Source: Klebsormidium nitens (taxonomy: Eukaryota > Plantae > Klebsormidiophyceae). Taken from it: a DNA stretch of 41,502 nucleotides. Positions 1 to 33,964 of the stretch are shown here, in pieces (positions within the stretch are counted from its first letter, which is position 1; each line of letters opens with the position of its first letter). A program made the translations under genes and the position numbers. The notes below the pieces were generated by a model, which saw nothing but the letters and a program-made list of their open reading frames with translations, made no database searches and had not been told where the DNA came from. The stretch is from assembly GCA_000708835.1 (NCBI GenBank), contig DF237660.1:1-41502 (forward strand). Reading direction: 5' to 3'.

Positions 1-24
1 TCACATGCGTTTTTCTTGCTCCAG

Positions 25-2974: not shown

Positions 2975-5733
2975 CGCCTTGTGATTCGACTTGTTCGCAA
3001 AGGTTTTAACTAGCGGCAAATACCCATCACCCAGGACTGCTTGAGAGCAAGCTTCCCTTGTTACACTGCTAAGGTGGGTCCAGCCGGGCACACAAATGGC
3101 GCCCGCGAGAAGCCCCAAATGCGGCAAGATAGGGTACGCATCGGCTTTGCCATTTCACCGCTGAAGCTTGCCAAACAGTCAAAGTCCTATTGCACATAAC
3201 CTTCGGCATCCGGCCAAGCCGGCAAAAAGTGGTTCTCCCATGTTGACCATGCAAAGAACTCCTGCCCGCTGCGTATTGTGGTCACTTGAGATACTGAAAT
3301 GCACCTCGCAGCTCTAAGCCCTCCTGTTTAGCGTGGTTGGTGCAGATTGCTTGGCATTTTGTACTCAAGAGCATACAAGTATCCGTATGGCCTCCACTCT
3401 TTCCTATGTAGAGTAGCTAGTTCGCATTGTCTGCTAACAATTTCGTGTGCTTTTTTGCACATCCACCATAAATGTTGCGATTTATAGTGAGAGTGGAGGC
3501 AATTTAGGCGCAAGCTCGGACAAACTTTTGTTCTGCATTGGTGTTGAGGCTTCATTGTATAGCATGGGGGTGCAAAGAGACAGGCCCAAATGGCCCATAA
3601 ACCTATCATGCCAAGCGCTTTGTTGGCTATCTCATAGCATACCATATGAACCCGCCAGTTCTGCAGCCTTCTGAGAGGAAAGGCGCATGGTGGTGCGGTT
3701 GATGAGGTGTTATCATGGAACGCGCAGCTACCGAATGCTGCAACTTTTTCACCTAGTACACTAAATGTATTGCCTTTGGTACGAACCGAGTTGAGCTAGA
3801 ACAATCAAAGCCACATGTGAAATCCAAAAATTGATACTGACCACTATAGCATGCACTAAGATCCATTCGAAGTGTCTAGAATTAACCAGCAAGTGCGCTT
3901 GCTGCTATCTTTATTCCGGAGTAGGGCCCAGCAGCCCCAGCTAATTGCCAGATACGGAGCCCAGCAAGAGTTGGGAACATAGTGACGATGTCCAACTCAT
4001 CCCGGTCAGTCCATACCGGCCACATCAGGCCCCGCCCTTCCTATTCGCCCTTCCGGCCTACGGTTAAAGTGCCATGCGCCACAAGGGGCAGCAAGCCACA
4101 AGAGCGGTATGCCAGCACAGTTGGCGCGACCTGCCTTGCATTCCAAACCAACTCCCCCGGGTGATCTGCCCGACGGCCCGGGGTCCGGTGCCCAAGGTAT
4201 AAGGTGCACGGGCCATGAGGGTTCAGCCCCTACCATTACCATTCAGGCCGCGATAATGGTGCCTGAAAGTGCAGCAAGAAGCGGGATCATGCTAGAAGCT
4301 TCTGTCCCTTGCCACAGCACTCCCCCTTCAGCATCAAGGGGGTCCCTCTGACGTACAGCAACGAGGCTTACATATGTGCTCCGGAGCATATTGTGGGGGT
4401 ATCACTGCCTGCCAACATTAGAGCTTTGGAGCTTGTCTATTGGCACGTGCTGTGTAACACAAGCTTAGGCCCAGTCCAGGGGGGGCGCCATCGCTACCAA
4501 GTCAGGCCCTGTTGCCGCTCGGGCCAGCCATTGAATGCTGCTAATATGGCTGCGAAAGGTCCAGCCTTCGTTCCGTGAAGGTTCCAGGCTGAATCAGCGC
4601 CCAGATATTCTCCTTCCAGTCTGGAAACTTCTGGGGCTGAGTCAGCACTTAGATATTTTGGGACAGGTGGCAGTTTTGGTGGCATAGTAATGGCAAGGCG
4701 CGGCATGGCGTGGCAGCTGTTTTTTGCTGCCTGCCTGGTTTTGATGGGTTCCCACAGCTGTTTTTGGGACATTCCAAGAAACCTTCTCTTTGTAGAGCCT
4801 TGGCAGGGGACCAGAAGTGGCAGTCAGAGAAACGACAACTCCCAAAGTCCTGAAAGGCGCGCGACATGTGCGAAGGTAAGTTCCTGGACACTATGCTACC
4901 TGATTGTTTTTTCAGCTGCAGCATGCTTGCAAGGGAACCAGGCCTGGTACCTGTTTATTCCTGCAAGCTCTGAGTGTGTGTGCATGACAATTCTTTCTTC
5001 TGAGGTGCTGTTTCAAGTAGAGGCAATCTTCTGCTTTGCATGCACGCGCTGATGACAACTCTGTTCTGCATCCTCATTAGCATGTCAAGCGGGATTTGAC
5101 ATGTTAACCAACTTGATAAGTGTCTGAAAGACCGTTAGCAATCACCAGAGTAATTTGGAATCTCAATTGGCGCTTCTTATACTGCTACAGAACATGTGGC
5201 TCAGCTAGTCACGAACGGATGTTGGTCAGGGCTTAATAGCCTGGATGTGGGGAATGATTGAGGCCTGTTGTCCATAATTGAAACTCATGGCAGAGGGCCA
5301 GGTATGTCTGCTTTTGTGGTCTATGAGGACTGTGGACTGAAAGTGTACATGTCCTTTTCTCTCATACAGGTTGAATGTCAATTGATCGCGGACCTGGCAA
5401 AGGAAACACTCAGGTGCAACAGGCTGGTTTCAAGGAGCTGCCCTGGGTTCATTGCCTTGTTCTGGGCTCGACAGCCGCTGGAGACGCGTTGCCATCAGGA
5501 GAGCCCATGGCTGTGCAGCCCACTGATGCGGCCCGTCAAGGGGAAGACCGCAGCTGCTGCAAGCAAAACAACCAGGTTGGTTCTCTGCCCCACCCCACGA
5601 GATATAATTACCTTCAGGTATTTCCCACAAAGGTGTTTCAAGTGGCCTGGATCATTTTATGCAATATTTGAGCTGGTCCATATGTCAGGGCTGTGAGATT
5701 AGCGGCCCGGTACTCCGGTTGGGCTTTTGACTG

Positions 5734-6568
5734 GGTCTACATGTTGTAAGTGGCCATACGGATGCAATCTGACACCAAGTACAAGGTGTGGGCCCTAATG
5801 AGACCCAACTGCAGCGTGGCTTAATGGTGGAGTGGCAGGCATGTGTTCTCTGGTTGCTCTTCTGAGGAGGGTCCACACGTTGATATTGGTTAGTAAGGAA
5901 TTGAGTCTTGAGCCATCTGCAAGGTGTGGGCCGTCAGCAAGCCAGGCCAAGGTGTGGCTTTTGCAGGTGGTTGCAAGCATGCGTTCTCTGTTTCAATTGT
6001 TTACAAACAAGTCCACACCTTGCGTCTGGACCCTAGGATTTCAGTCTTGTTCCAACTACGACGTGTGGACCATCAGCATACCCAGCCGCAAAAGAGCTTC
6101 CGCAGGCGCGCACTTTCTGATTGCCCCCATTTGGATTGAACCCACATGTTGCTACTGGTTCCTAGAAAAATCAAGTCTTCAGCTCCTGTGGGTCACATGC
6201 AAGCCAGGCCACAACTTGGAATCTGGAGGAGATGGCAGGCACGCCGATCTTTGGTACTTGCTTTGAATTGGGGCCACACCTTGTCATTATCATTGGAAGT
6301 CCAGTCTTGCGCCACCTTAAATGGAGCGATTTGCGGGGCATGCAGTTTTTGATCGCTCTTTTGAATGGGTCACACGTTGTATATGGTAATTAGGGATCTA
6401 GCCTTTAGCCATCTGCAAGGTCTGGACCGTAAGCAAGCCCGGCCAGAGCTCAGTTGCTTGGGGGGATTGGGGGGCACAGGCGCTTTCTGACACCTGTTTT
6501 GATTCGAGTCCACACCTTGTAAGTGGTTCTTAGAGATCGAGGCTTCTGCCATCTGCAAGGTATGGACC
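5734..6568. repeat. Degenerate cluster of the ~62-bp palindromic repeat family, mixed orientation
   Basis: Units at ~5734-5794, 5870-5932, 6011-6071 (reverse), ~6270 (partial), 6367-6430 and 6507-6568, e.g. ggtccacacgttgatattggttagtaaggaattgagtcttgagccatctgcaaggtgtgggcc. Confidence 0.75.
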
Positions 6569-6730
6569 ACACGCGAGCCCGCCGCACGTCTTAACAGGGT
6601 TCATGGGAGAAAGGCCGCATCCAATCGGCAGGCATGTGCCGTTCAACTTCCAGGCCTTTAGAAGGTAGCGAGCAAGAACAGCGGGTGCTGTGGGTTGTGA
6701 CTAACACGCGGTACTCTTGCTTCGTTGCAG

Positions 6731-9700
6731 AAGCCGTCGCCGGGTGCGAGCACTGCTCAGGGAATTTGCCTTTCTCCGACGCCCCCGACGATCGACGCGG
6801 GCACCCATGACTGTCAGGCAAAGGCTCTTTCCCTCTGTGCCATCCGCCAGCTCGCCCCAATGGCTGTGGCAGGACCGTCCGCCGGCATTTCAGTGAGGGG
6901 CTTGCGTGTGCTCCGCAAGCGCGCAGGGATCGTGTGCCGGCGCGCTCAAGGGGAGTTGGGGCCTGCAGGTCTTCTCTGGTCGGAGGCTGCCTGGGTTGGC
7001 AGCTTGCGTGCTGCAATGGGTGGCCTCAAAGGGCTAGCAAATCTGCCAGATGTCGATCTGCTGAGTGGGTTCGAAGAGGTTCTTGCCTCAGTCAAGAGGT
7101 CTCACCTGGAGGGGCTCAAGCAGCCAGCGGGTGTGTCCCGCAGATTCCGCAAAGCAGGACGGCAAACCTCCAGTTGCCCCCGCCCTGCAGCTCGCAGTGC
7201 AGAAAGGAAAGCAGCTCAGCGCCTTGCGCGCTCGCTCTGCGAACCAGAGGACACAGGTAGGATAGCTCGTTCCCGTTCTTGGTGATGCATCTCAGCGCCC
7301 GAAGCTCAGGTCTGAAGCAAAACGTGATGCGAAACAAAGCAGTTGCAGAGAGACTTGGAATCTTCTGAAAATGGGGTGTGTTGACTATTGGGGTCTTTGC
7401 TGGGAGACTCGAGTAGCATCTTTGGGTGCCAGAAATGGTGCGCTGTTCTTTTTATGGGCGGGGCTGTCAAGTGTACGGAAAGTATTTCCGTTTGCCCTGG
7501 CTGCGCTCACAGCTCCTTTGGAAATGTTACTTAGGAGATGAGTTTCGAGTCCCTCAACTACTTTTTGGGAATTGAAGCGCCTTTCAATCAAACATCACAG
7601 CACTCTGCAAGCACACTAAGCATCACCTTCACTGGTTGCCTCTTTTCCAGTTCCGTACGCACTATACTGCCACGAGTGCGGCGCCGGTGCAGACTGTGGG
7701 TTGCGTGGAAGCAAGGAAGGGGGGGAAGTGAAGTACGTTTGCAATGAGCACGCTGACTCGTACCGCTACTTCAGCATCGACAAGGACCGTGCAGGTGAGC
7801 GCTGCATGGATCTGCTTGTTCGATGAGTTGGTCGGCAAACAAGTATTCAAGCGCACACTTGCACTTTTTGGGCAGCACCATAGCAGGGTCCTGCCATGGA
7901 GCCGATCTAGAGCCTAAATCCACTATAATCTGTTCCTTGCAGCGTTGGGACGCGCAAAGGCAAAGGTCGTGGGAAAAAAGGATGTGGCATCGCCGGCCGG
8001 AGACCAGACTCGCAGTCAGTCAGGTGAGCACTTAACCGCAAACGAAGCTGACAGGATATGCGTTATCGACCAATCTGAAGCAAGTGTCCCATTGAGTGCT
8101 TGCCATACTTTTCTTTCATTGCAGGCATATTCAAAGTTGATCCGGATACTAGGATGCAGAGGTTGTTGATGTATTGCTCGTGAATTGCAGCGTGCAACAA
8201 TACCTTCCAGCGAAGTGGGTTGTACTACGATGCAGCGCCCAAAAGCAGACGCCTCACAGGTGAGACACTGATCGAAAGGGCCCCCTAGCTCAAGCTTTTG
8301 CGACCCCCTTGTGCTGCTCCAGAATCTGTTGCCTTCTTCGCCCTTTGATCTTGACATCCTTCTACTGGAAGCTACGTCCTGCATCCTGCATCCATTGCTC
8401 ACATCCGATGTGGTTTCAATGAACAGCGACGCTCCTGATCATCGGGGGAATTGAGCCCAATCCCGGCTGGGGGCCCGACGAGGTGAGCGCTCAAGGCAAG
8501 TCAGCGCCAGGTCACGACATCGGCACAAGTCGGCCACTCATTCCACTGCCGTCGCTTGAGGTGAGCGTACGTCTGACCCTCTTGCAGTTCGTTGTTTCAG
8601 GAGCATCCTCTGTTGATGACTGAACCCTTAACCAAGTTGAGTAGCAGGGCGTCTTCTGTGGCCATAGCTATCAGTGTAGGCGAGCAGGCTCTGCACTTGT
8701 GCTGACATACGGTTGTTGCACAAAGGAATGAGCCTGAGCTTTCTTAATTGGTCCTCTTATGTGATATGCAGGAGGTCTACGGCAAACCGCTGTTGTCCGA
8801 GAGCACGTACCCACTTTTCGAAGATTGGAGGAAGCGAGCACGTTTGAGCAAGCAAGTGAGTTTAGTGACCAAGCAGAACCAAGCGGTATTTGATTCGTGA
8901 AAGTGGGCACATGCACTGTGTTCGTGACTTTCTGCAGCGTCGAATCTTGTATGGAAAGTCGAACGATGCAAATTTAGTCGAAGCACGTGGCAAAAATATG
9001 CCTTTTTGCTTGTTGCATGGATACTGCTTTGTAGTGATATCGGAATTAGATTGACCAGAACAACGGGTTTGTCAATCCTGTGGGAAGAAGCTGCGCAGTG
9101 ATTCTCCCAGAGCGGATCTTTCTGCACATGCAATTGACTTGTTCATTTTCCTCTTTCCAGGTGGGAATCAGCTGTGCAGCCTTGGAGGGAGGCGTTGCTT
9201 CAGGAGAATACGACCGCACGGGAAGGCCCGAGTCTGCGGAAGAGATGCCAAGTCTGGACAGAGAATTGGTCGACGAAGAACTCAGTCATCTGGACAGGAT
9301 TGAAGAGGGTCTTCTGACTGCCCTGGTAAGACCTGAGTTGTAATCTCTTCGCTCTAGTTGGGAGCACCTGAGTTGGGAGCTGTTACGGATGCTTTCTGTC
9401 CTCCTTTTGCAGGCAAGTTGTTGGAGATCATTCAAAGCATTCCGAACTGTTTTCACCTTGGACATGCATGGTTTGTAATCTTACTCAGGTCGCTTGTTCT
9501 CTTTCAAGGTGGAAAACAACGGGGGGGACGAAAGGAGCCAGCTGTCCACTTCGCTGAGAGAAGTATCTGGCGCTGTAAACGAGAACAAGGGATGCGGCGC
9601 CGCAGCAAAGGTGAGGATCCAATCCTGAGGTGCGGACTTCAATCGAGCTCTGGTCAATCTGTGCTGCTCACCTTTGCTTCTGGAAAGGCCACAGAAGCTC

Positions 9701-12700
9701 GATGCTAGCTTCTTTCTTCGAAGTGTTGAGTATGAGCACTGTTTTTGGGCCAGATTAGTATCCTGTTGTGGCTCTCTCTCTTTCAAACTGATTGCAACCT
9801 GCGGACCATCAGGTGTCGGCAATTCGTAACATTTGACGGACTAGCTGGCTGCGGTGCACGAAGTGATCGCCGCTAGTCGTCGCTGTTGCATTAGGTCGTC
9901 CTTCTGATCAGAGCCGTTCTATTCTTTGTCCAGATAAGCCGTGGCAACAAGCGGTCGGCGGCGATTGCGGCCAGTGAGTCCGATTCTGAGCAATCAGGAT
10001 CTGAAGAAGGCGAGGACATTGAGGGGGCCGAATTTGAGAGTGTGGACGAGTCTTCAGACGGGGAGACATCTCAGGACCGCCGTATGATCGACGACGGAAG
10101 CCAAGACGAGGAGAATCCGGTGATCGCGCAAGGCAAAATGCGCGCCGCCGGGAACTTCGATCATGAGCCGGACATCGCCCAGCTTCTGGCTGGGCGCTTC
10201 AAGCCGCAAGCGCCTCGACAGGCGACCAAGGCGCTCCAAACCGGACGCCAAGACCGTCTCCTGCCTTCACGGTCCAAGTCCGCAGCCGACGGGGGCAGCC
10301 CTTCGCGGAGCTCTTGCTCTACCGCGAGCGACGGGCGGTGGGTGGGTGCCCAGGTTGATCAACAGCCGCCGGCCGCCGCAAGTGCTGGGCTCTTGCCGCT
10401 GCGCTCCGGGAGCTTGCAGTCGGAGGAGCTCGAGAAGGACGATTTCGACGTGAGCCTGGTGGTCGGCTGACAAAAGGCTCCTATTTCGGCTGACAGATGA
10501 ACATATCTCGTTGCCTTCGGTCAGGCCGCCTGCTTTTTGCATGAATATGATTCGAATGATGAGGAAGCCTTTTAGATATTGCTTCAGGGGTTCGCAACCT
10601 GTGTTCACGTTGCTGGAAGTGAGGGGGTTTGAGGCCTTTCGTCTGAAGGTGCACGAAATTTGTCGGGTCCGGGCAGGCGTCTGCTTCCGGGACGAACCTT
10701 TTGAAGTCGGAAGCTCTGTGCACGTTGCTGGAAGTTAGGCCCCGGTTTTCCGAGGAAGTGGGTTTTCTTTATCGCGAGGGGTTGATCAACCGAGTCAGAG
10801 AGGAATTTACGGATTTTGCCTGTACATATGAACACCCGCTGATAAATGCGTGGCGATTTTGTCTCTGTCATTCTCGACACTCAGGTGGCTTGGACACATC
10901 CTGGTGACGATTCCTGCGGGTCGGGTGAGGAGGAAGCGGTGGAGTCAGGCCGGCTGCGGAGGCTGCGAGTTGTCAGCGACGAATCGGAAGAGGAGCGTCC
11001 TATTCCCAGGCAGGGACGCAAGGTCGTCCTTTCGCGATCCCCTTCCGCCGAAGACCTCCTTGCAGAGCCGGCGTCTACTGCGCCCGCACAAGGAAATCAG
11101 GTACGTTCTTGCAAGAGCTGAAAGCCTCTTCCGTTGTGAACTTAAAAAGAGCAATATTCAGCCGGAGATGCGCGCAAAATCTGGCCTTTTTCAAGGCGTT
11201 TTCTGGTGACGGTTTCACTTTATCGGGTCGTTGGCATCCACTGTTGGATCTGATGAACGTGCTATTGTTGTAAGGTAAGGTTGGCAGTCCGCTTTGCCTT
11301 CTTATGGTGGTTTCCCCTGTTGGTGTCCACTTTTGAGTCTGATTGGAGTTGCTGAAGGCCTCCAGCCACCTACAAGGTGTGGACCGTAAGCCGGTCCGGC
11401 CATAGCGCACATTTTAGGGCGGACGGTAAGCACAGGGCCCCTCTTCCTTCTCATTACTGGTCAACACGTTGCCTTTGGTTTTAAGGAATTGTATGCCAGG
11501 TCAACTGCAAAGTGTGGACCGTAAGCCGGCCCGGCCGTACCACAGATTACGAAGCCGAAGGCAAGCACAGGCCACGGGTCCACACGCTGTCTTTGGTTTT
11601 AAGGAATTGTATGCCAGGCCAACTGCAAAGTGTGGACCGTAAGCCGGCCCGGCCATACCACAGATTATGAAGCCGAAGGCAAGCACAGGCCACGGGTCCA
11701 CACGTTGTCTTTGGTTTGAAGGAATTGTATGTCAGGCCAGCTGCAAGGTGTGGACCGTAAGCCGGCCGGGCCATGTCGCGGATTTTAGGGCGGACGGTAA
11801 GCACGGGGCCCCCTCCGCTTTCTCATACTGGTCCATACGTTGTCTTTGGTTTTAAAGAATCCTGTCTTCAGCCAACTGCAAGGTGTGGACCGTAAGCCGG
11901 CCCAGCCATACCACAGATTTGGAGCCGAAGGTAAGCACAGGCTCCCACCTTCCTCGGGTCCACACGTTGTCTTTGGAATTAAGAAATCATGCCTCTGGCC
12001 ATCTGCAAGGTGTGGACCGTAAGCCGGCCCGGCCACGCCACCGATTTCGAAGCCAAAGGCGGGCACGGCCCGGTCCACACGTTGTCTTTGGAATTAAGGA
12101 ATCATGTCTCTGGCCATCTGCAAGGTGTGGACCAAAGCCAAGTATCTCTCCATCGCGAAATGCAATCATAGACTCCACTTTCACGTCAGCTCATGATGTG
12201 CGTGTCCATGTGTGCAGGAATCTGAGGGGACAGAAGGCGATGGTGAAGATGTGCGCCAGCAGCCCCGATGGATGTCTGCTGCGGATCTACACGTAAGTCG
12301 AACAATGTGCGCTCCAATGACTGCTCTTTCCAGCCCCTCATGACAGTCAACCAGTGTAAAGTCTTTGAAGAAAGGGGCAACGTTGTTGCTTTGCAAAGTC
12401 TCGGATCCTCCGACCTGCTCTTTGAAACAGCCTGGAAGGCCACTGTGTCTTGATCAAGGGCGTCGAGCTGAAAGAGACCAAGTTTGAGTCGCTCGCGCGC
12501 ACCATCGTCCAGAGTTGCTTCATCCCGTCTCTAATCCCCTTGTCTTTTGCAGGACGATGGCCCTTCCTCCGACCGTGTGCATCCGGCTAGGGAGCCGCAT
12601 TCTGCTGCTGCGGAGCTGGCACCTTTGGTGAGTCCACTCGCCTTCGTGTACGGGGAATGGGCATCTTGACAGTAATCTGGTCGCTGTTGACCCGGATCGA

Positions 12701-15700
12701 ACCTTTGTCGCTCCGACCGCCGAGCCCCTTCCACTCGACAGTCCCGCTCAGTTCCACGCCCCACACGGCGAAGAAGTGCGAGATGAGGTACTCCAACCAG
12801 CTCACGTAGTTATAAAACTTCTCTCCCTCGTCCCAAACAAGAGCTTGCTTGTCGGGTGAAAGCGTCCACTGGCAGTAGAAGGAGGGGAACTTCTTTGCGA
12901 TGTCGTATCCCTCCCCGGAATAGATGCGCTTGCGCACATGTCTGTCGATCTTTACCGGGCGCTTCTCGACAATTGCGTAAGGGAGCTCCAGGTCCTCCTC
13001 GTGGCGGTGGTCGTACACGGCTTCCAGAATAGCGGTCTCCTCAGCAGTCAAGGGTCGAGAAAGGGCGAAGTGACCGGTGAAATGCGTGTCGTAGCCCATG
13101 ATTGCAATGCCCTTTGAGTGCAAAAGCGTTTCCCCTAAGTATGGCAAAAGCGCGTGCTGAGCCGCTTTCCAAATCTTTCGCCCCCAGGTTCGATCTCGGG
13201 AAGAGGGGGCAGGGGGGTCCCCATCGGTGGCGCGCCGACCAGTTAAGAAGAAGCCACGGTAAGCCCGTTGCGCACTTGATTTGATCGTCCTGGGCTCAAC
13301 TGTTGATTCTGTCGTTGGAAAAGCCGTGCATCGAGTGAGCAGCCTGGAGAGGTGCCTCTTCAGGTGGTGTAGGCCGTGCTGTCAGCCCTGCTCAAAGTAG
13401 CAGGCTCGTGTCTGAAGGGGGTTTTTGCCACTAACCAGACTCGCTAACCAAGCACTAACCATAGCATGCAAGTCTGATTAGCAGCTCCTAACCAGACCCG
13501 GAACACCGCAGCTTCTTTCTACTAACTCGACATTCCCTTCATGCACAGGAAACGCACCAAGCCGAGTCCTGCCCCAATGGACGAGGCGACCCGAACCGCT
13601 GGACAAGCGGCTCTTCAAGCTCATTTCCGCAACCTCAGGGAATCGAGGCTCCATGGAACCTGGCAGGAGGGGCAAGTTGTACAGCTAACTGATCCGGGTG
13701 ATCCTGGAGACTCGCTTCATGCTCCCGACGCCGTAAGTCGTCCGCAAATCTGTGGCCTTTGGAGCCAGCTAGACCGCGCAAACCGCTGGCAATCATAATT
13801 GGCTTGTGCGCACAGCCTTGCAAGACTCTTGACAAGCAGGGTGCAGTGCCCCGAATTTGAGATTGAGACTTTGTAAAGCACGTTTTTGTCGGAATGGTTA
13901 CTGTACATGATCTGTAGCCTCTGCTGGCACTGCCTCCTCCAATCTTATGCAGGCCTGCCCCCACTCCAACCAGCGTTTCAGTCCCGTTTATTAGTGCTCG
14001 CTTCAAAACTCACCCGTCTGCTATATTTTTGCCCTCAGGTCCTTGATGAGGAAGCGAGACCATCGACATCACTGGCGCCAAGGACTGGTCGACCAGCTCA
14101 AAAGAAGCGAAGGTGAGTTCTGTGGCCGACTTGGTGCGTCATTCTTGGCTCACCTGGTGCATCATGCAACCGAAAGCGGTGCAAGCAGTAAAGGAAGGGC
14201 AAAAGAAAGATGTACTCCTTTGTTTATCGCAGGTTCTTTTTGCCAGTGCCGAAAGAGCGTCCGACTTGTAATTCTGTCATCAACTCAACTTCCTTTATCC
14301 CACAGCAAACGGGCAAAGCCAAGTCCTGCCCCATTGGACGAGGCGGCTCGGGCGGCTAATCGAGTGGCGGTTGAAGCTCATTTTGGGGCACTGGAGAGAT
14401 CGAGGCCCCATCGAATCCGGCACGAGGGGCAAGCTGTACATCGAGCGGAGTCGTCCGATCTGGGAGGGCCGCACCATGCCGTGGTAAGTGACCTGCAGCC
14501 CTAGTACCCTTTGCACCTCTTGCGGGCGCCTATGTCACTGCTGGGCGCCGTGGGCCATCATGTCTGCACCTCAAGTCACGCAAGACACCGTGCAGACTGC
14601 TCAAGTCAAGACTTGCTGGGTTTGATTTCGAACTCTGCGGTTGTCATTTGCTCTCAATCCTGAGGTTGGCGTACCATCATGAAAGCAAGTAAGGAATAGG
14701 CCAACTTCCTTTGTGAACAGCCAACAGTGCAGGGTCTTGAGGAGTTCGATTCGCCACCTGTGTACCACTTCAGACACCAGAAAGCCCATGATCCGTCCAA
14801 TTTCGCTCACAAGCATTTTGACCTCTCTTTGCAGGCAGCAGCGCGACCGATGCTGGAGGCGCTGGGGGCGGAGGAGCAGATCGCCCAAGAGGCAGCTGCA
14901 GTCGAGGCCCATGTGGACGCGGCCCAGAACGACATAGAGGGCCAGCAGGAGCGCGAGTGAGCCACTGCTGCTTTGTGTTGCTTTGCGTCTGTGTGTGTCG
15001 ACCAGCTGCCTGCACGAATGATTCTCAAACTTCGTCTTGGCCAGGTTGTATTGGGATGCGATTCTCTGGCCGTTTTGATGGAGGCATGCGCGGTGGACCG
15101 TTCCCAAGGGCTTTCTGGAAATGTTTGAGAGGAGAAGTGGGATTGAATACGATAGGAGAAACGGAACGAGCGTTGGGAATGGAGCGCATTCGAAGCACTG
15201 AGAATGCCTGGTTTTTGCAGGCACTCCGAGATGGCGATGCAGCAGCACGTTCTGCAAAGCCCACAGGAGCAAGAGACGCTCGGAGACGCTGAGGTGAGCC
15301 TGACGTCAACATTTGCTGACGGCGGGCACGAACCTCCCCCCTCTCCTTTGTGTTCTTTCAACTGGTCCACACGTTGTCGTTGGTACTAAGGAATGCTGTC
15401 TTCAGCCAATTGCAAGGTGTGGACCGTAAGCCGGCCCGGCCATACCGGGTTGGCAAGACAAACGGTGGGCATGCGCCCCCACTTAATGGGTCCACACCTT
15501 GTACTTGGTTATAAGGGAACGAGGCTTCAGCCATTTGCAAGGTGTGGACCATGTCGAGGCAAGCAGTTTGTAGGCTCGAGTGTGAGATTTTTCGCTGAAT
15601 TGCATGCTCCTGTGTTTTCTGCAGGAGCCCGAGGCGCCCCAGCAGATCTGGGGGGTTCCTGCCGAGGATGTCGGCAACGCGACAAGCTCGCCCGCCAGTG

Positions 15701-18700
15701 CAGAACTCTGTCAGCCCAGCACAGCCCCCGACCTCGACGAGCCTGCCCAATCTGGGAATTGGGTTTCGACGGAAGATGTAAGTCTCAATTGCTCCAGAGA
15801 AACGCTCAATGATAACTGATCAAATCACGTCGTGTATGCTTGGTCCGTAGTAATCGTCAAAGCTGAGCGGTTGTTGATCCTCTTCTTCGCTGAAGTAACA
15901 AACATTGAGGCCTTCAGGGTCTGTATCCAACTGATATCTGATGTAGGGAGCCACCGAGCTCCTGTCCCAGTCCTTAAAGCCGCCATCCTCTGTGAACTCC
16001 TTCAGCAGGTCCGGCCGTTGCAATTTACTTGTGTTGCCGCACTTGCCCATTCGACGAAGGTCGTCGATTGCCTCCAAGGCAGCTTCTAGGAACAGCCTTG
16101 CCCTGTCGCAAGCCTCCTTGTCATTGCGATCGAGCTCAAAGAGATCCTGTAGTTGCTCGTTCGAGATTGGTGCTCCTTTTCCGGCGGCGAAAGACATGAG
16201 ATTTTGCCTTTCTGCAGCACAACGCTTCCCTAAGTAAAAATCTTCATCACAAGTCGTCTGTGGCCGCGCCCCCTTGTTCGGACCCCATCATTGACCTGGT
16301 CCTTCTTTTGTGCAGGATGTCCCTGTGGTGGCGCCCGCCTCTCGAGTGCGCCCTGGCGAGACTCTGGTCCACAGCGAGCACGACGGAAAACTGTTGACCG
16401 TCAAGAAGGCGGCGCTGGGCACCTTTTTCTTCGCCAAGCGCAAGTTCGACGATAAGGTTGACTACCGGGATGCGAAGAACGGGCCGCAGGGTTTCTGCCG
16501 ACGTTATGGAGAAGTGCTCCGCCATCAGGTCGAAATCCGTCGCCTGCGCCCCTCTCGGGAGTTTGGGTCCTACCCAGACTGGCCCTCGGCGTTCCCCAAA
16601 CTGCGCAGCGAGCCTCACTTGGAGGAGGCCATCAAAGCGGGGTGTCCCTGCAAGCCGTACCTGGATCTGGAGAGAGACGGGGGGCTGCCGGACGGGGAGA
16701 CCCTCGAGACGGTCATTGCGGCCTTTGAGGAGGCAATCACGATCGTCTTCAACTTGGACTACGGCCTCAAGCTCCCAGCGGAAGCCTTCAACTGGATCCC
16801 CTGCGACTACGGGCCGGGCGGCAAGTTTAGCCTGCACCTGGTCGTCTCCTCCCATTCCCCCCAGTTTGTCTTCCGGTCCAACCTGGCAGCCCCGGCGGAC
16901 CCTCAGGGAGCGGGCCATCTCGCGAGAAAGCTCGGCCAGCGCTTGCCCGACCGCTATGCCGAGCTCATCGACCAGTCGGTGTACACGAGGAACCGGGGAA
17001 TCAGACTCCCCTACTGCTCCAAACCCTCCACTCCTCAAAGCCGCCTCATCCCCCTGGACGAGAGCAAGCCGTACGCGGACGCCTGCATCACCTGGTTCGA
17101 TGACCACGTCCAGACGATCAAGGTCCCCAGCAGCGAGATCCCCGACGTCGTGCGAGCGGGGCGTCCCCGCAGCAGGCCCGAGCATTTCCGGTACCAAAGC
17201 CCCAAGGTCGCAAGCATGTATGAGATCCAGAGGTGCACCGAGCTCATCCAGACGCTGCACCCGACGGCTTACCGCAGGGGGTCGGCAAACTCGCTGAACT
17301 TCAGCTGGCACGATCGGAGCGAGCCGTGCTACTCGGGGCACGTGCATGCTGGGGGGAGGGACATCCTCTGCATCGCGGCCCCGGAGAAGAACGCAGTCTT
17401 TGCCAAGTGCTGCAGCGAGCGAATCGATCCAACGACGGGCGTGTGCTGCAAGGACCTGCCGTCCAAGTACCTCGGGCCGTACTGGGTGGATTGCGATACG
17501 TGGAAGGACGGTGCTGTGGAGATCGACATGAAGTACCTGCAGCGGAACCCGCTGGCTGCCGCGCCCATGGACCTGGAGCAGATCCGTGGCGGCTTCCGCC
17601 CCCTGACCAACGGGGTCGTTTTAACGACATCATGAACAAGTAAGATCGTTCACTGCGCAAGGGACCTTGGTGCGCGCGCGCTTCAGGCGTAAACGTGTGA
17701 GTCTGGTCGCTGTTGCTTGGTAAGTGCTGCGTCGCTGGTCGCTGGACTCTTAGGCTCAGTTTGTCTGGGATTCTGCTTGGTACTATTGGCAGCCGGTTAG
17801 CGCTGGTCTTGGGCAGATGTTGTGCGTTGGGGAATAGAGGATCGTGCAGAGAACTTGAGGCAAACAGCAGGCTGATCAGCCCTGCTGTTGGAAGGTGTTT
17901 AGACGCTTTTAGGTCTGGTTGACCCCAGGATTTTGATCGCTGTCAAGGAATCGGGACCAGATCTGAGTTGGGAGGCCGAATACATGCCTTTTTCAGAGGG
18001 TTTTGGCAGCGTACAACGCTGCAAACCTGGTTGTGATCAGCGCTGTAAGTCTGCTTGTAGTTGTGTGCTGTTTTGCGTCCGTTCAAAGGGTGCTTGTTAG
18101 CGTTTGAGCAAGGGTTTTGCAGCAAGAACCAGACTGCTGTCGCGCCCCGTGGCGCATGCGTGTCGCTCACATTTTGGCAGCCTAGATAGCGCTTCAGATC
18201 AGATCAGCTGACACCTGATTTGAGGACACCCCGGCGTCAGATTCGGAGCGATTTGGGATTGTGAAGCAGCTTGCAGACAGCCGTCAGGTGTCGAGACTTG
18301 AGGCGCATCTCAAATTGCATCAAGAGCGCGCGTTTGTGGCTGTGGTGGTCAGACAGACAGGGAGGATAGGCAGCTCGACTGTAGTGCATACTGAGGTGTT
18401 GGTGCTTCAGTCTTGCAGCCGTCTTTAGTTTTCGGAAAGCCAGCGCTGTTTAGCGAAAGGGTCTTCATAAGGTTCCTTTGAAATTCTGAACGTTCTTACA
18501 ACCTTTTCGTGCAGGTGGCAGGAGGGTCAGTACAAAGCCGTGATGCTGAGGAGTCCCATGGGGAGCGGAAAGAGCACGCTTCTTCAAGCCCTCTTGGCTG
18601 AAGAACCTGAGCCCGAGACGGTCAACATGGCCTCTTACCGTCGCACGCAAGCTCTGGACGCTCAGGGCAAGCACAAGGACTTTTCTCACTACGAAGTCCT

Positions 18701-20672
18701 CAAGCAGGCAGATGGGCGCGAGGTCGGCGGGCGCTTCATCAGGCCTCTCGCCCACAGGGAGCTCCACCCCCGCGTCATTTGCCAGGTCGACAGCCTGCCC
18801 GGCCTGCTGGCTGAGGATGACGAGGACGCCCCCGCGTTCGACCTGCTCGTCCTGGACGAGAGCGAGTCAATCTTGGCACATCTGTCTGCCAACACGCTTC
18901 GCGAGAGGCACACCGTCATTCGGCTCCTGGTGAGAATGATGAGCAGAGCGCAGCGGATCATCTGCATGGACGGGCACTTGGGGCAGCGGACGTTCGAGTT
19001 CCTCACCATGCACGGGATTTCGTGCTCCCCCGTGGTGGTCAACACCCATCCCCCGGAGCGGCCCCTCCAGGTTGAGTTCGTTCACGGCAAGAACAAAGGG
19101 CTCCCAAAGTGGGAGGGGGCGATCTTTGAGGCGCTGGAGGCCGGCCGCAACGTCTTTGTGGTGAGCATGTCCTCCGACAAAGCACGAGAGTTGGGGGCGA
19201 TGGTCGCGGATCGGGCCGTCGTAGAGAACGACCAGATCTTGATCATCACCCGACACTCAGACGGTGCGGTCAAGCGGGGGCTGCAAGACGTGAACGTGCA
19301 GTGGCGAAAGCGGCTCGTAATCATTAGCCCCACGGTTGAAGCAGGCGTGGACTTCAATCAGCGTTGGTTTCATCAGATGTTCCTGTACATCTGCCCGAAA
19401 AGCACGCACCCGAGGGGCTTGGATCAGATGAAGGGGCGTGTGCGGAAGCTGGAAGACCAACGGGTCCTGTGTTACGTCCAAGAGGGCATCAGGCTGCCCG
19501 CTGAAGGGTCGCTGGGGGACAGCTTCTTGACGAAGATGAAGACCGATTCGGGCAGCATTGCGAGGCTGGGGCTCGAAGAGACCTATCAGTGGTTTTTGAA
19601 CCAGGATCAGAGGGGCGGGCTAGGGGTGAACTGTGCGGGTCCGATAACCCGCCTTCTCGCTCACAATGAGAAAGAGCTCTCTAACGGACAGACGCATTTC
19701 TACGAAGAGTTTACAGACCTGTTGCGGAGCGACGGCCACATTGTCTTGGGCGTGCCTGTCGAGGAGTCGGATGACGGTGAGGCGGTCGAAGTGAATCCAG
19801 GCGGCTCGGAAGAAGGAGGGCGCAGGGGCAAGTATCTTCTTGAGGCGATGATCCGCGCCCCTAATATCTCGCAAGCCCAGTTTGCCGACATCGAAGCACG
19901 GGTCCGCAAGAACCAAGACCATGAGGGGGAGATAATTTCGATGGAGAAGTACCAGCTGGCGCGGTTTTACGACGTGCCACACCTGAACGAGGACTTCCTG
20001 CGAACGGTCGGTCCGTACCCAATCCACGCGGTTGATTTTCTCGAGCAGGTGGTTGACGAAGGGTACAAACATGAGGAAGCGGAGATTGGACGGCACAGGT
20101 ACCCCCCTCTGATGGCAGATATGGCCAGGGAGCTCTTAAGGGTATTGGGATTCGGGCACCCGCTCGACTTGGCTCACAAAACGGCCCCTCTTGAGGCGCT
20201 GAGGCCGCAACTTGCTGGAACTGCCTTCTTCCAGAATTACTCGGAGAACGCCAGGTTATTCCATACTCGGGCAACAGGCGCAGCTGACGCATTGGCCTAC
20301 CAGAAGTCGGCCACGATCGGTCTTAACCACGTCTTCTCGGCGTTGGGACTGCGCTTGAAGGCAAGGAACCTGGGCAAGCTGGAGGTGAACGATGGGAAGA
20401 GCTCAACAGGCAAGCAGCGAAGACGGAAGATTCGATACGGAGGCTGGTATTTATCGCGAAACCCTCGGAGCACGACCCGTCCTGTATGTGGTCCTCCCGG
20501 GGTAGACGTGATGGCTCAGTTGTTGAAGCTTCGTCTGGAGCATTCGGATGCGTTGAAGGCGAGGATTCCGGCAACTTTGAGGGATTACGTGGACGGACTT
20601 CGCTTAGCATGGCCGGAACTCGTCCAGGACAGGAGGTGCGAGATCGAAGTAGGACCAAGAGAGGTGGAATAG
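6731..20672 (+). CDS. Multi-exon gene (~20 exons, ~2,120 aa): low-complexity/Zn-finger-like N-terminus + AEP primase-polymerase + Zn domain + UL9-like SF2 helicase; true start probably further upstream
   Basis: Phase-compatible GT-AG exon chain traced by hand: 6731-7256, 7651-7794, 7943-8023, 8191-8259, 8427-8482, 8772-8855, 9161-9325, 9509-9610, 9934-10449, 10885-11100, 12218-12292, 13188-13258, 13549-13732, 14039-14112, 14306-14483, 14835-14956, 15221-15293, 15625-15777, 16316-17639, 18515-20672. One 1-nt frame break lies in the TTTT run at 17619-17622. Confidence is higher for the last two exons than for the upstream chain. Confidence 0.7.
11322..12133 (+). repeat. Tandem array of 7 palindromic ~62-bp units with related spacers, inside an intron (11101-12217)
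   Basis: Unit ggtccacacgttgtctttggttttaaggaat(N~13)gccaactgcaaggtgtggacc, followed by gtaagccggcccggcc. Unit ends at 11385, 11520, 11638, 11756, 11891, 12018 and 12133 (periods 135, 118, 118, 135, 127, 115). Confidence 0.93.
12587..13099 (-). CDS. Intronless phage-type conserved hypothetical protein, nested antisense in intron 12293-13187
   Basis: MGYDTHFTGHFALSRPL...FPSFYCQWTLSPDKQALVWDEGEKFYNYVSWLEYLISHFFAVWGVELSGTVEWKG...DKGSIRV. This fits a pattern I recognise from bacteriophage hypothetical proteins (MGY-x-T-x-F-x-G...CQW...WDxGEKFY-x-Y-x2-WL-x-YLI...L-x-G-x-V-x-W-x-G). Confidence 0.75.
   Translation of the reverse strand: MGYDTHFTGHFALSRPLTAEETAILEAVYDHRHEEDLELPYAIVEKRPVKIDRHVRKRIYSGEGYDIAKKFPSFYCQWTLSPDKQALVWDEGEKFYNYVSWLEYLISHFFAVWGVELSGTVEWKGLGGRSDKGSIRVNSDQITVKMPIPRTRRRVDSPKVPAPQQQNAAP
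13188..14483 (+). repeat. Tandem duplication of a two-exon module within the large gene
   Basis: Exon pair 13188-13258 + 13549-13732 (RPVKKKPR|KRTKPSPAPMDEATRTAGQAALQAHF...EGQVV) parallels 14039-14112 + 14306-14483 (RPAQKKRR|SKRAKPSPAPLDEAARAANRVAVEAHF...EGQAV), with identical intron phases. The DNA block aagccRagtcctgccccaWtggacgaggcg is shared. Confidence 0.85.
15364..15550 (+). repeat. Two further units of the palindromic repeat, in intron 15294-15624
   Basis: ggtccacacgttgtcgttggtactaaggaatgctgtcttcagccaattgcaaggtgtggacc and ggtccacaccttgtacttgg...ttgcaaggtgtggacc. Confidence 0.9.
15820..16197 (-). CDS. Intronless hypothetical protein (125 aa), nested antisense in intron 15778-16315
   Basis: ATG-initiated ORF with globular-protein-like composition (MSFAAGKGAPISNEQLQDLFELD...) that fills most of the intron; no family recognised. 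Confidence 0.55.
   Translation of the reverse strand: MSFAAGKGAPISNEQLQDLFELDRNDKEACDRARLFLEAALEAIDDLRRMGKCGNTSKLQRPDLLKEFTEDGGFKDWDRSSVAPYIRYQLDTDPEGLNVCYFSEEEDQQPLSFDDYYGPSIHDVI
16316..17639 (+). CDS. Exon encoding an archaeo-eukaryotic primase (PrimPol / NCLDV-herpes primase-like) domain plus Cys/His-rich Zn-binding domain
   Basis: AEP motif I PYLDLE, motif II KFSLHLV and motif III IDQSVYTRNRGIRLPYCSK, followed by EPCYSGHVH...FAKCCSER...C. Acceptor cttcttttgtgcag at 16315; donor aa|gtaaga at 17640. Confidence 0.88.
18515..20672 (+). CDS. Exon encoding a superfamily-2 helicase of the herpesvirus UL9 / origin-binding-protein type
   Basis: LRSPMGSGKS (Walker A), ASYRRTQA (Ia), CQVDSL, LLVLDESES (Walker B), IICMDGHL (III), IISPTVEAGVDFN (V), QMKGRVRKL (VI). 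Order and spacing resemble UL9-family proteins. Splices in phase from NDIMNK to WQEGQYKAVML. Confidence 0.85.
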
Positions 20673-21100
20673 AGGTAGCAATGAATGCGAGCCGTACTGT
20701 GGACTGGAAGTCTGGAGCAATTTGGTCAGGCTAGAGTGTGGTCCGCGTCTTACAGATGGCCGTCAGGCTGCAGTCTTATTTAATCTAGCAATTTGAAATA
20801 TGCGAACCAATATGTATGCTTTTTAGGTTTTGCCAATCTGCGTGCCAACCCGTTTTCAGGAACGCCGCAAGCCAAATCTTTTATAGACCCTAATTGCCTT
20901 CAAGAGTGGGTACACGCGCAATGAATTATAGAGACGTTGAGTGGCATGGTCAATGTGTATATCATTGCATCCAGCGTGCAAGAGGCGTCCAAATGCGCAA
21001 CCTCGGTGTTGCTGCATTATTGCACGCTCGCTAAGTCGCAAGCCGCATACATACTTAGAGAGATGGCTCGGCTCAAAGATATCAACTGAACAGCCCTGCC

Positions 21101-22411: not shown

Positions 22412-22497
22412 TTTTGAACCTCGATATTCACGTTATCTGCGGAGGGGGCCTTCAGCGTGGTCAAGATTTTCTCGCCAGTATCCAGATAACCTGAAAG

Positions 22498-23553
22498 ATG
22501 CAAGGGCCTGCCAAGAGCACACGACACATAACCACGGTTTCTGAAGGCGGAAGGCTATTACGCCAGGTCTTTGAGGATGGCGATCGAAATGAGAACACGA
22601 TCGGTCAATATTGCAAGCACGTCATGCGCTTGTTCCAGGGTTTGCACGGGCAAAGGGATTTTAGCAATTTGAAATGGCTCAAGGACGCTGACGGAATCAT
22701 CAAGTACTTTCAAGAAGCCTACCCCTCAAAGCTGTCGATGCAGGCCACTGGGATTAACCCGCTTCTTGTGATAGCGCGCAAAGCATTTCCCGATGACAAA
22801 CAGCTCTATGATGCTTACTATAAGCGGTACACAGAGGTTCGAAAGCTCATGGATCAAAGCAAGCCGCCTCTCCAGCAACTAACAGAGCGCGAAGCAGCAA
22901 ATTGGAAAACTTTGGATCAAATTAACGAGCGCAGAGTGGAGCTACAGAGGCACGTCAATCGCAAGATTCTGAACAAGAAGCCCGAAGATTTGTCCGACGA
23001 GGACAAAATTGTGCTTTTTTGCCACCTCGTATTGTGCCTTTATAGCTATCAACCGGCAATTCGCAATGGATGGGGGGATTGCCCCATCGTGCGCTTAAAA
23101 GACATTAAAACAGTTGAGACTCGCGAGATCATGTCTGGATCCGGAAATTATCTGTTGGAATTCGAAAAAGACGAATTTCGTCTGGTATTGAATGATTTCA
23201 AGACCGTCCGTCACCATGGACCGACTTCCGTAGACATGTCGACCCGCTGCAACAACGTCATCTCGGAATCGCTGGAAGTCTTTCCGAGGAGGTACCTATT
23301 ATCTCGAATCAGGTCGCCCGACAAGCCAATGAGCCGAAATTATCTCTCAAAATTTTGCAGCACAGGTCTTTTCAAGGACGCAAGCGTGGGTTCGTGTCTT
23401 CTTCGCAAGATTTGTGTGAGCAATCTCTTCAAAGACGCCCCGAGCATAGCCGAGCGTGACGACCTTGCGCGGAGCATGTTGCATACGGCCGCTATGGCAC
23501 AGCGAACCTACGAGAAAAAATTCGACCAACACGGCTCTCGGATCCGGTTTTGA
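22498..23553 (+). CDS. Tyrosine recombinase/integrase of the virophage / Polinton-like-virus / NCLDV type
   Basis: N-terminal core-binding-like helices (NTIGQY...LKWLKD). Catalytic set: LYSYQPAIRN (R), LNDFKT (K), SCLLRKICVS (R), ARSMLH (H), AQRTYEK (Y). Intronless, 351 aa. Confidence 0.85.
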   Translation: MQGPAKSTRHITTVSEGGRLLRQVFEDGDRNENTIGQYCKHVMRLFQGLHGQRDFSNLKWLKDADGIIKYFQEAYPSKLSMQATGINPLLVIARKAFPDDKQLYDAYYKRYTEVRKLMDQSKPPLQQLTEREAANWKTLDQINERRVELQRHVNRKILNKKPEDLSDEDKIVLFCHLVLCLYSYQPAIRNGWGDCPIVRLKDIKTVETREIMSGSGNYLLEFEKDEFRLVLNDFKTVRHHGPTSVDMSTRCNNVISESLEVFPRRYLLSRIRSPDKPMSRNYLSKFCSTGLFKDASVGSCLLRKICVSNLFKDAPSIAERDDLARSMLHTAAMAQRTYEKKFDQHGSRIRF

Positions 23554-23943: not shown

Positions 23944-24033
23944 GCTCAGTACTGATATTATGGTAAGAAAATGTGCTTGACCCGACACCAAACGCACGTG
24001 CGTTTAAACAGACTGGTTTTAAATCTTGTCAAA

Positions 24034-32006: not shown

Positions 32007-32291
32007 CCTGCAAATGGAGAATTGATTGCTTGTTGAGAGATTCACTTTTCCTTAAGTACCCCTTCGATGTCGCTTTTAAACCACATTTGCCATCACTTGT
32101 GTTTGCTCCCCGGCCCCTTGGTGACACGTTATAGCTGATTTAGACTGTTTCATTACCTAAAGTCAGAAAGCACGTGCGGTTTGGCGACCGTTGGATGCCT
32201 GCTACAGAGTAAAGCCCGCAGTATGGCCACGGGCTAACCTACGGTCCCCACGTTGCAATCGATGATCGGCGATGGCCCCGAACTGGCTGAT

Positions 32292-33151
32292 GGTCCACAC
32301 CTTGCAGTTGGCCTAACACACAATTCCTTAAAACCAGAGACAACGTGTGGACCCGGCCGTGCCCGCCTTCGGCTTCAAAATCTGCGGCGTGGCCAAGTTG
32401 GCTTACGGTCCACACCTTGCAGTTGGCCTTCCATACGTTTCCTTAAAACCAAAGACAACGTGTGGCCCCATGGCCTATGCTTGCCATCGGCTTCAAAACC
32501 TGCGGCGTGGCCGGGCTAGCTTACGGTCCACACCTTGCAGTTGGCCTTCCATACGATTCCTTAAAACCAAAGACAACGTGTGGACCAGCACCTGCGAACA
32601 CGTGGAGAAACGTGGCGCAATCAGTGCCCGCCATCCACTCTAAGATGTGTGGTAGTATGGCCGGGGCAGCTTACGGTCTACACCTTGTAGTTGGCCTTCC
32701 ATACGATTCCTTGAAGCCAGAGACAACGTGTGGACACGTGCTCTGTGCTTGCCATCGGCTTCAAAGTTTGTGGTGTGGCCGGGCCAGCTTACGGTCCACA
32801 CCTTGCAGTTGGCCTTCCATACGATTCCTTAAAACCAGAGACAACGTGTGGACCAGCACGTGCGAACACCTGGAGAAACGTGGCGCAATCAGTGCCCGCC
32901 ATCCACTCTCAGATCTGCGGAAGTATGGCCGGGCCGGCTTACGGTCCACACCTTGCAGTTGGCTGATGACAAGACTCCCTTAGACAAAGAACAACGTGTG
33001 GACCAGCATCTGCAGACACTTGAAGAACCGTGCCCTGATGGGGTGCCCACCATCTGCTCTAAAATCTGTGGTATGGCCGGGCTGGCTTCCGGTCCACAAC
33101 TTGCAATTGGCTGAAGACGGGTTCCTTGAAACCAAAGACAACGTGTAGACC
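32292..33151 (-). repeat. Tandem array of 7 palindromic units, inverted relative to the 11322-12133 array
   Basis: Units start (ggtccacaccttgcagttggcc...aaaaccaaagacaacgtgtggacc) at 32292, 32407, 32525, 32675, 32793, 32943 and 33091. Periods 115, 118, 150, 118, 150, 148, i.e. a 268-bp higher-order duplication. Confidence 0.93.
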
Positions 33152-33964
33152 CGTTCAGAAAAGGAGAGGGAGAAAAGCTCAGAAAACGTGCCTCACATTG
33201 TCACGGGCGATTATTTTACAAAAAGGAGCCGCCATCGGAATTTTGTGTGCACGCCCTTTGGCACCAGCCATATAGAGAGTTAGTGCAAAGCTCACCACAC
33301 TTGCCAGCGAGAAGGGTGGGGGCTGCAGCTGCCGCTTCCATCAACGTGCGGCCGTCCTAACCTCTTGAAGCTGTCTCTGTTGGCCAAGTGAGTGCCCCTC
33401 TAGTGCACGTTTCGAGCCGCCGTGAGATCCTGTATACGACCTCGCGACCTATGCCGGGCGGGGCTGCTCTGCTTGAACTTTGGAGCGTAGATCTAGACTT
33501 GTCTGCTCATCTACGGTCTAGAATGAGCGGCTCGGCCGTCAACCGGGCGGTTCTTTCAAGTTCGGGGGAGAATCCCCAATGGACGGCGCCCGAATGTCCT
33601 GCCTCCAATGGACGGCCACGATGCAAACCCTGAGTTGGGTTGGATTGTAGCCTCGCGCCGCCCCGGGGCCCGGCCGCAGCCGCGCGGCCGCGGCGGCCGC
33701 CTGCCAATGACTTGGTGCGAAAACGGAGGTGACGCGGAGCCATTCTCAGATAAAATCTGCTATGCTGCGCAAACAATGCGAACCAAGGCGCAATGATGCT
33801 CCAGCACCACCTGTTGTCAATCAGGACTGGGTAGGAGTCTGGTCACTTGCGGTCTTTCTGCAATTTTGAGCTTGTAATAACTTGTATTTGGAGAAGTGCT
33901 GACATCCAGCTGTGTGCTTCGTGCCTGATGCGGCTCGTGGCCTGCTGAAAGTGTGCCGGCAGTC

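Follow-up and report, generated by a model that had tools for sequence, protein, structure and literature searches.

We analyzed a 41,502-nt stretch of the Klebsormidium nitens genome (contig DF237660.1 of assembly GCA_000708835.1; hereafter, the window), in which an island, read as a virus-derived mobile element, holds four arrays of a 62-bp spaced inverted repeat (hereafter, the unit), together with a primase and a helicase that resembles UL9 of herpes simplex virus 1 (HSV-1). We predict that the units are iterated binding or origin sites for the element's own giant-virus-type UL9-like primase-helicase, and we rate this prediction as evenly balanced between holding and failing. A preliminary description of the DNA had proposed such sites for a UL9-like protein. 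The pattern of conservation, the placement in introns, a paralogous copy, and the architecture seen in viruses agree with that proposal, but in viruses the association extends beyond UL9-like helicases, with 3 of 12 D5-type contigs showing it as well.

A spaced inverted repeat in four arrays

We built a profile from 12 units and searched it over the whole window, finding arrays in both orientations. The four arrays together comprise 21 units that could be aligned and 3 remnants, as follows.

5734..6568, + strand: array 1, five units, more diverged, and two remnants; within intron 5576-6730
11324..12133, + strand: array 2, six whole units and one with a decayed left arm; period of 115 to 135 bp
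11459, 11577, 11695, 11830, 11957, and 12072, + strand: the whole units of array 2
11324-11385, + strand: the array 2 unit with a decayed left arm
15364..15550, + strand: array 3, two units; within intron 15294-15624
32230..33151, - strand: array 4, seven units plus a half unit; located upstream of the KDZ frames

Array 4 is inverted relative to arrays 1 to 3, and a weak remnant (10 bits) lies at 20724-20763, directly past the helicase stop codon. Whole units scored 18 to 90 bits, compared to at most 8.8 bits in 20 shuffles of the window, and a repeated family of spaced palindromes appeared in none of 30 window shuffles. The 10,836 bases outside positions 3000-33665 gave no profile score above 3.9 bits, in agreement with the earlier count of more than 20 units, all within the island.

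The unit reads GGTCCACAC(G/C)TTG-N4-TGG / 22 bp / CCA-N4-CAAGGTGTGGACC, so that each arm is bipartite (13 bp, 4 free positions, and a triplet). Its whole length was 62 bp in 16 of the 20 units measured and 61 or 63 bp in the other four. The preliminary description recognized inverted arms, given as 13 to 14 bp, but placed them about 34 nt apart; their separation is 36 bp, and the symmetry extends inward to the TGG/CCA triplets, which are 22 bp apart. Position 10 is mismatched between the two arms in 18 of 21 units. The core, described earlier as T/A-rich, is AT-richer than the window (57% across 36 bp and 61% across the inner 22 bp, compared to 46% in the window and 48% in repeat-free introns), but it is not AT-rich and not a strong unwinding element; its longest pure A/T run is 3 to 7 bases. 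The unit sits inside a tandem repeat of 115 to 150 bp, the linker of which is partly conserved. We also counted 10 matches to TTARGGAA, compared to 1.45 expected, with 7 located within units and 2 upstream of minus-strand frames; a TATA-like role was considered for this motif.

Conservation and folding of the unit

Across the 21 units, departures from the consensus accounted for 28 of 544 cells in the arms (5.1%), 3 of 126 in the TGG/CCA triplets (2.4%), 42 of 168 at the N4 positions (25%), and 140 of 460 in the core (30%); these counts omit the three remnants, and because the units were partly found via their arms, the contrast between arm and core is inflated. On these counts, the arms and inner triplets are kept 6 to 12 times better than the core, between arrays as well. 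Single units fold strongly as hairpins (z scores of -3.8 to -5.9 in six of six), with position 10 forming a fixed mismatch in the stem. Changes on both sides occurred in only 1 of 19 stem pairs, and covariation was not above that of shuffles. Conserved arms and a drifting core without compensatory changes are the pattern expected of protein-binding sites, and we infer from it that the unit is a bipartite, double-stranded protein site with fixed spacing.

Arrays 1 to 3 lie in introns of a giant spliced gene

The first three arrays are located within a single gene on the plus strand, whose relevant features are the following.

4500..20672, + strand: giant spliced gene; 14 GT..AG introns from joints and one inferred from sequence; 5' end left of 4500
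11101..12217, + strand: intron with array 2; its GT..AG joint occurs in contigs from three runs (three studies) but not in DNA run X1
16316..17639, + strand: AEP primase exon of giant-virus/herpes type; Atlas clusters AEP_C962R and Herpes_UL52, scores of 0.92 to 0.97
18515..20672, + strand: exon for the UL9-like SF2 helicase and its C-terminal domain (residues 420 to 721, approximately); Pfam Herpes_ori_bp, 1.8e-21

Runs X5, X9, and X12 were taken to be RNA, a guess backed by GT..AG joints that are absent from DNA and by a lariat-type joint. In the contigs of these presumed RNA runs, introns 5576-6730, 11101-12217, and 15294-15624 are removed, and arrays 1, 2, and 3, respectively, are spliced out with them. 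The lariat-type joint, detected in run X5, connects 15597 to 15294 in the array 3 intron, with a misread base at the branch point. Spliced contigs connect the exons through the primase exon to the helicase exon. No splice joint spanning array 4 was seen in the contigs, and the KDZ region is almost without cover from RNA runs.

The exon chain from 10885 stays open for 846 codons and ends at a stop codon (17633-17635) that overlaps the helicase ATG (17632-17634; ATGA), directly before a splice donor. In the window copy, primase and helicase share a transcript with split frames, whereas in paralogs P0015 and P0017 the AEP domain is fused N-terminal to the SF2 core. DNA and RNA contigs are gapless relative to the window here. 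The split frames may reflect either a broken copy or stop-restart translation.

Smaller features were also observed in this gene. Two antisense frames, 12587-13099 (-) and 15820-16197 (-), are nested within it, each with ACTTAGGG(G/A)A approximately 30 to 40 bp upstream; a similar motif is located at 32048-32055, before the KDZ frames. The frame at 12587-13099 (-) is multi-copy in DNA contigs. Exon 8427-8482 encodes LLIIGGIEPNPGW, as does paralog P0017, and we take this peptide to resemble a 2A stop-go peptide, but with W replacing the final P.

A primase-helicase of giant-virus type

The window helicase is identical to K. nitens protein KFL_007110030, and four further K. nitens proteins and several others match it at 56 to 73% identity. 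Paralogs of the primase-helicase gene in K. nitens include KFL_011360020, KFL_013210020, KFL_000090020, and KFL_012130020. The best match for its core, in sequence and fold alike, is HSV-1 UL9 (PDB 9HGI/9HGJ): residues 3-419 align to UL9 residues 43-502 (Z score of 19.6, rmsd of 4.5, 364 residues aligned). The match stops at UL9 residue 502 to 516, covering the helicase core only and falling short of the origin-binding domain, which is placed at residues 536-851 and described with an RVKNL motif and a GTTCGCAC box in the accessible text of PMC12543377. The RVKNL string is absent from protein P0007, and GTTCGCAC is absent from the arms. For the primase exon, phmmer returned a match of 1e-17 to a giant-virus contig protein.

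The full-length model is poor in its C-terminal half, and a model of the C-terminal region from an alignment of 29 rows reached a pLDDT of 76.8. By fold, this C-terminal model matches giant-virus UL9-like helicases in BFVD (E values of 3e-9 to 1e-3), and HHalign extends the alignment of the C-terminal region to its viral counterparts as far as residue 623 (100%). The Atlas links it to cyanobacterial plasmid initiators of the CyRepA1 type (TM of 0.53 to 0.57), CyRepA1 being a Rep protein (PMC10899382, in the text accessible). A comparison to UL9 of human herpesvirus 6 gave a weak row (E value of 0.03, probability of 0.47). In the model, a C-terminal helix is followed by a long basic beta-hairpin, which would plausibly serve as a DNA-binding wing. 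The architecture of the protein is that of pF1055L from African swine fever virus (ASFV) and of mimivirus R8.

Copies of the unit elsewhere

We judged genome-wide spread indirectly from DNA contigs, in which depth is not copy number and copies below 80% identity are invisible. Among the matches listed, the number of variant-bearing contigs was 11 at a KDZ exon position, 5 at a primase position, and 1 to 2 at array 4 positions. Within the same matches, array 2 explained all 19 listed variant letters of array 4, array 4 explained all 4 listed variant letters of array 2, and 6 variant letters of array 1 originate at another locus. A paralogous locus carries a copy of array 1: a contig differing by 67 letters and 15 gaps across 483 bases spans the last unit of this array, at 6508, into the next exon. 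Among these matches, few array copies outside the window were found at 80 to 82% identity or above, and the arrays do not look genome-wide. Within these limits, the unit appears to track the helicase gene family, rather than KDZ or the genome at large. Because KDZ is present in many copies and the arrays in few, it is unlikely that the unit is a genome-wide miniature inverted-repeat transposable element (MITE).

Neither the exact arm nor the single proteins P0001 and P0002 gave a match when scanned against viral sequences. The only locus from a pattern scan of metagenomes was rejected as a chance match, being on a bacterial-looking contig with no profile score.

Spaced palindromes in viral relatives

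We collected 126 IMG/VR loci from alignment scans with the helicase and with a capsid protein, some of which share a contig; the capsid scan contributed the best 80 of 251. Spaced inverted repeats were then detected without regard to gene content, a locus of at least 9 kb counting as positive if the same arms recurred at a minimum of two dispersed sites. Under the strict setting, 10 of 17 UL9-like virophage contigs were positive, compared to 1 of 12 D5-type contigs (p=0.008) and 1 of 23 unclassified ones; the contigs are related to one another. Families of spaced palindromes appeared in none of 860 shuffles. Overall, 1 to 2 of the 23 scored virophage contigs without an identified replication gene were positive, as were 4 to 6 of 22 UL9-positive loci without a capsid gene. 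One contig (L044) had already scored positive when its UL9-like gene was found in a stretch of its sequence not considered until then. The architecture commonly accompanies UL9-like helicases, but it is not specific to them.

Arm types follow helicase clades. TAAGT-type arms are found in L003, L007, L008, L009, and L026, and CGGGATT-type arms in L028, L096, L097, L102, and L104, with L100 lacking them. L014 and L031 stand apart in the capsid tree (FastTree; major capsid proteins 66% identical), yet their D5 proteins are 84% identical and both carry the same 81-bp unit, while their capsid sisters have UL9-like helicases and TAAGT-type arms. In this capsid clade, the unit moves with the replication gene: the D5 protein and its unit are shared despite the separate capsids. 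The link between alga and viruses consists of architecture and protein homology only. The 8-mer CCTTAAAA, which occurs in units of the window, L091, L013, L044, and L003, was chosen post hoc and serves only as a lead.

Two observations concern the viral contigs themselves. The linear L003 (1-15586) has long terminal inverted repeats, a 1484-aa UL9-like helicase, and a GIY-YIG nuclease, with no virophage capsid gene detected; each terminal repeat holds three 63-bp GGTC...GACC spaced palindromes, near the geometry of the algal unit. In addition, dispersed, conserved, intergenic spaced palindromes are present in L091, L013, L026, L035, L038, L044, L097, L099, L102, L019, L014, L031, and L084, and those of these virophage contigs were not found described in the literature searched.

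Other modules of the island

The island consists of the giant spliced gene (+), an inner module of lower GC content that carries the putative recombinase and the Prim-Pol/D5 helicase, and KDZ-type frames (-). It is flanked by host-like genes, with a RETICULATA-like gene beginning near 33970. Its remaining features are listed below.

22495..23553, + strand: putative tyrosine recombinase; lacks Pfam hits and neighboring repeat units, and many virophage contigs have homologues
23956..26379, + strand: Prim-Pol and D5-type SF3 helicase; Pfam Prim-Pol, 3.5e-15, and DUF5906, 1.2e-19
27060..31742, - strand: KDZ-type transposase frames 27060-29303 and 30039-31742, the latter placed in this gene solely because of its position
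33525..33665, strand not assigned: candidate right end, a multi-copy stretch whose copies enter unlike flanks at 33665

The label of tyrosine recombinase for the frame at 22495..23553 comes from the preliminary description and a motif pattern. The KDZ frames have no direct Pfam hit; among 20 chosen relatives, 16 match Pfam KDZ and 9 match CxC4 (E≤0.01). Depth at 33525..33665 is 58 to 72, compared to approximately 12 to 15 alongside, with a loose end in three contigs (agreement of 0.53), and array 4 lies approximately 500 bp from this candidate end. For neither the island nor the inner module did we find a terminal inverted repeat (TIR) or a target duplication, and no inverted left end matching 33525..33665 was found. 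Pfam scans matched no capsid or polymerase family, and the window yielded no virophage capsid gene.

The inner module has a GC content of 48 to 49% and contains no repeat units. Just 3' of its Prim-Pol/D5 gene, at 26845-27049, are five copies of ATTACCC and two inverted copies, with 19-bp arms 82 bp apart; by comparison to the 81-bp units of the D5 virophages L014 and L031, this stretch is a candidate origin of the inner module.

Comparison with known systems

The unit had been likened to HSV oriS, and both have inverted, slightly unequal boxes around an AT-richer spacer and are accompanied by a UL9-like SF2 core. The algal arrays differ from HSV-1 oriS in comprising 24 copies in tandem, with no third box and a core of only 57 to 61% AT, and the algal protein family is primase-fused, with neither RVKNL nor GTTCGCAC. 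A direct analogy is not supported: the match is limited to the helicase core, Foldseek gave the confident C-terminal model no PDB match at E≤0.001, the protein is of the primase-fused giant-virus type, and the core is not a strong unwinding element. Baculovirus homologous regions (hrs) are dispersed tandem arrays of imperfect palindromes that are bound by viral proteins and proposed as origins or enhancers (PMC6669502, in its accessible part), and the four dispersed arrays of the island are likewise tandem and made of imperfect palindromes. However, hr palindromes are approximately 30 bp, have no long spacer, and bind IE-1, whereas the algal units are 62 bp and spaced, with three arrays in spliceosomal introns of a nuclear element; Pfam scans of the window gave no IE-1 family match. 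By analogy, the algal units would work like baculovirus hrs or oriS, without being a member of the HSV oriS/UL9 system or an hr.

The order of AEP and SF2 domains is found in ASFV pF1055L, mimivirus R8, ostreid herpesvirus 1, and some mriyaviruses (bioRxiv 10.1101/2024.02.29.582850). The algal proteins share this domain order and AEP type, and the C-terminal model fits the giant-virus members, but the algal gene is intron-rich, with many extra 5' exons and split primase and helicase. The accessible part of the same source gives no cognate DNA site for primase-helicases of the pF1055L/R8 type, and the accessible literature gives no target DNA for primase-fused UL9-like helicases of giant viruses, virophages, and their relatives; candidate sites are now explicit. 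For polinton-like virus (PLV) primase-helicases, inverted repeats have been proposed as origins (PMC11296320), and in endogenous virophages terminal palindromes have been linked to non-pPolB replication genes (bioRxiv 10.64898/2026.07.28.741278). As far as these sources are accessible, the published repeats are terminal and were screened at a gap limit of 10, whereas the units described here and in L003-L105 are internal, dispersed, and long-spaced (whole units of 41 to 81 bp). Relative to those texts, the internal spaced units are new, while inverted repeats as PLV origins and terminal virophage palindromes had already been proposed or noted.

The island encodes a KDZ/CxC4-related transposase, as KDZ transposons do. 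In the accessible part of PMC12730594, Zisupton is described with TIRs and 8-bp target duplications and Kyakuja with CA..TG ends and 7-bp duplications; unlike in those elements, neither signature was found at the island. The hairpin signal at the 3' end of Mimiviridae transcripts is not conserved in sequence (PMC4402537, in its accessible part), whereas the algal arms are conserved in sequence without covariation and a sense transcript crosses three of the arrays. Neither the repeat nor the element was found described in the titles and abstracts searched, a search that left subscription journals mostly uncovered and in which supplements may hold repeat annotations.

Proposed mechanism and alternative explanations

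If the units are sites for the primase-helicase, two protomers or dimers may bind the inverted arms via their C-terminal domain, the SF2 motor would melt the core, which is mildly AT-rich, and the AEP domain would prime synthesis for a host polymerase. The arrays of this copy, with its split primase and helicase frames, may act as origins or may have done so in the past. The arrays may have arisen from a single viral-type intergenic unit that was copied around the element and then expanded in tandem by unequal exchange, like hr arrays. Each element has one arm sequence, and natural swaps offer controls, which makes the pairing of initiator and origin testable by gel shift. If the prediction is true, a herpes-like system of initiator and origin has been kept within an expressed, spliced gene of a streptophyte alga, and a self-replicating class of nuclear mobile element is indicated. 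We extend this tentatively, in a form that is doubtful as a whole, to the suggestion that capsid-less, intron-rich nuclear elements of Klebsormidium copy themselves in the manner of viruses, moved by transposase or recombinase while the primase and UL9-like helicase fire intronic origins, and that the same palindromes are unrecognized virophage origins traveling with the replication gene.

Several results weigh against the prediction. In the island, array 4 neighbors the KDZ gene and is separated from the helicase by 11 kb; the core has 57 to 61% AT and no long A/T run; and the primase and helicase frames of this copy are split, unlike those of paralogs P0015 and P0017. The window helicase forms a long, unplaced branch in a quick tree of 35 selected rows. 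Foldseek gave no match to the C-terminal model in the PDB, which includes UL9, at E≤0.001, a result that does not show a different fold. Among the viral contigs, allowing spacers of up to 70 changed the comparison to 10 of 17 versus 3 of 12 D5-type contigs (p=0.13), or to 8 of 17 versus 3 of 12 (p=0.27). L019 was reassigned to the UL9 class after it had scored positive, and its arm core, GAAAGACC, is shared with the D5-type L084. The window arm has no counterpart among the arms of the first ten viral loci. Finally, none of the 46 gap-located viral units falls in a divergent gap (24 of 146 gaps), an avoidance that suits either a 3'-end signal or simple promoter avoidance.

Other explanations account for part of the data. 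We consider it unlikely, although less so than for the others, that the units are enhancer-like sites for a dimeric transcription regulator of host or element, comparable to hr/IE-1, with the helicase uninvolved. The same conservation pattern would fit, the units are intronic in an expressed gene, and every array is oriented alike relative to the sense of its nearest gene; left unexplained is why viral units change with the replication gene, and a weaker objection is that no spliced transcript was found beside array 4 on the KDZ side. Next in order, and also unlikely, the KDZ transposase may bind the arrays as subterminal or internal sites, with opposite orientations at either end of a single large transposon. 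Arrays 1 to 3 (+) and array 4 (-) do face inward, and array 4 is close to the candidate multi-copy end at 33665. However, at least 11 contigs carry KDZ variants, whereas every variant listed for array 4 derives from array 2, arrays 2 and 3 are at least 7 and at least 11 kb from any possible left end, terminal inverted repeats and target duplications were not found, and the literature search found nothing on subterminal inverted repeats of Zisupton.

That the unit is an RNA hairpin, now or in a viral ancestor, serving as a Mimiviridae-like 3'-end signal or an intronic structure, seems improbable to us. Strong folding in six of six units favors it, as does the location of viral units at the 3' ends of genes (the 19 convergent gaps hold 15 of them, the 24 divergent gaps none), but paired changes are no more frequent than in shuffles, the stem has a fixed mismatch, the sense transcript runs through three arrays, and the sequence conservation of the algal arms contrasts with the Mimiviridae signal. 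We hold it to be just as improbable that the unit is a functionless minisatellite, or a MITE with terminal inverted repeats of 13 to 20 bp, that spread by itself. Tandem arrays with decayed edges are what such a repeat might leave, and a tree with weak support mixes the units of arrays 2, 3, and 4; the preferential conservation of arms and triplets, between arrays as well as within them, the absence of units from 10.8 kb of flanking DNA, and the scarcity of outside copies among the matches listed argue against it. Least probable by far is a role as sites at which the island's tyrosine recombinase would recombine DNA. Sites of the lox/FRT type also have 13-bp arms, and a putative recombinase gene is present in the island, but the spacer of such sites is 6 to 8 bp, whereas that of the algal unit is 36 bp, or 22 bp between inner triplets, a difference already pointed out in the preliminary description. 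Moreover, the recombinase module contains no unit and has none at its edges, and homologues of the recombinase occur in many palindrome-negative virophage contigs, whereas the parts retrieved for several positive contigs revealed none.

Additional sequence features

We recorded several further features of the window. A perfect 24-bp palindrome at 22286-22309 lies upstream of the putative recombinase. A frame of 311 codons at 29211-30146 (+), antisense to the KDZ frames, has no Pfam hit and is multi-copy in DNA contigs. The duplicated exons 13533-13626 and 14290-14383 of the giant gene share the motif CCCCAATGGACG with two copies in 33574-33614, within the candidate right end. In an intron of the left-hand gene, a 40-bp direct repeat (82%) at 1346-1385 and 2195-2234 bounds approximately 850 bp, which is possibly a small insertion.

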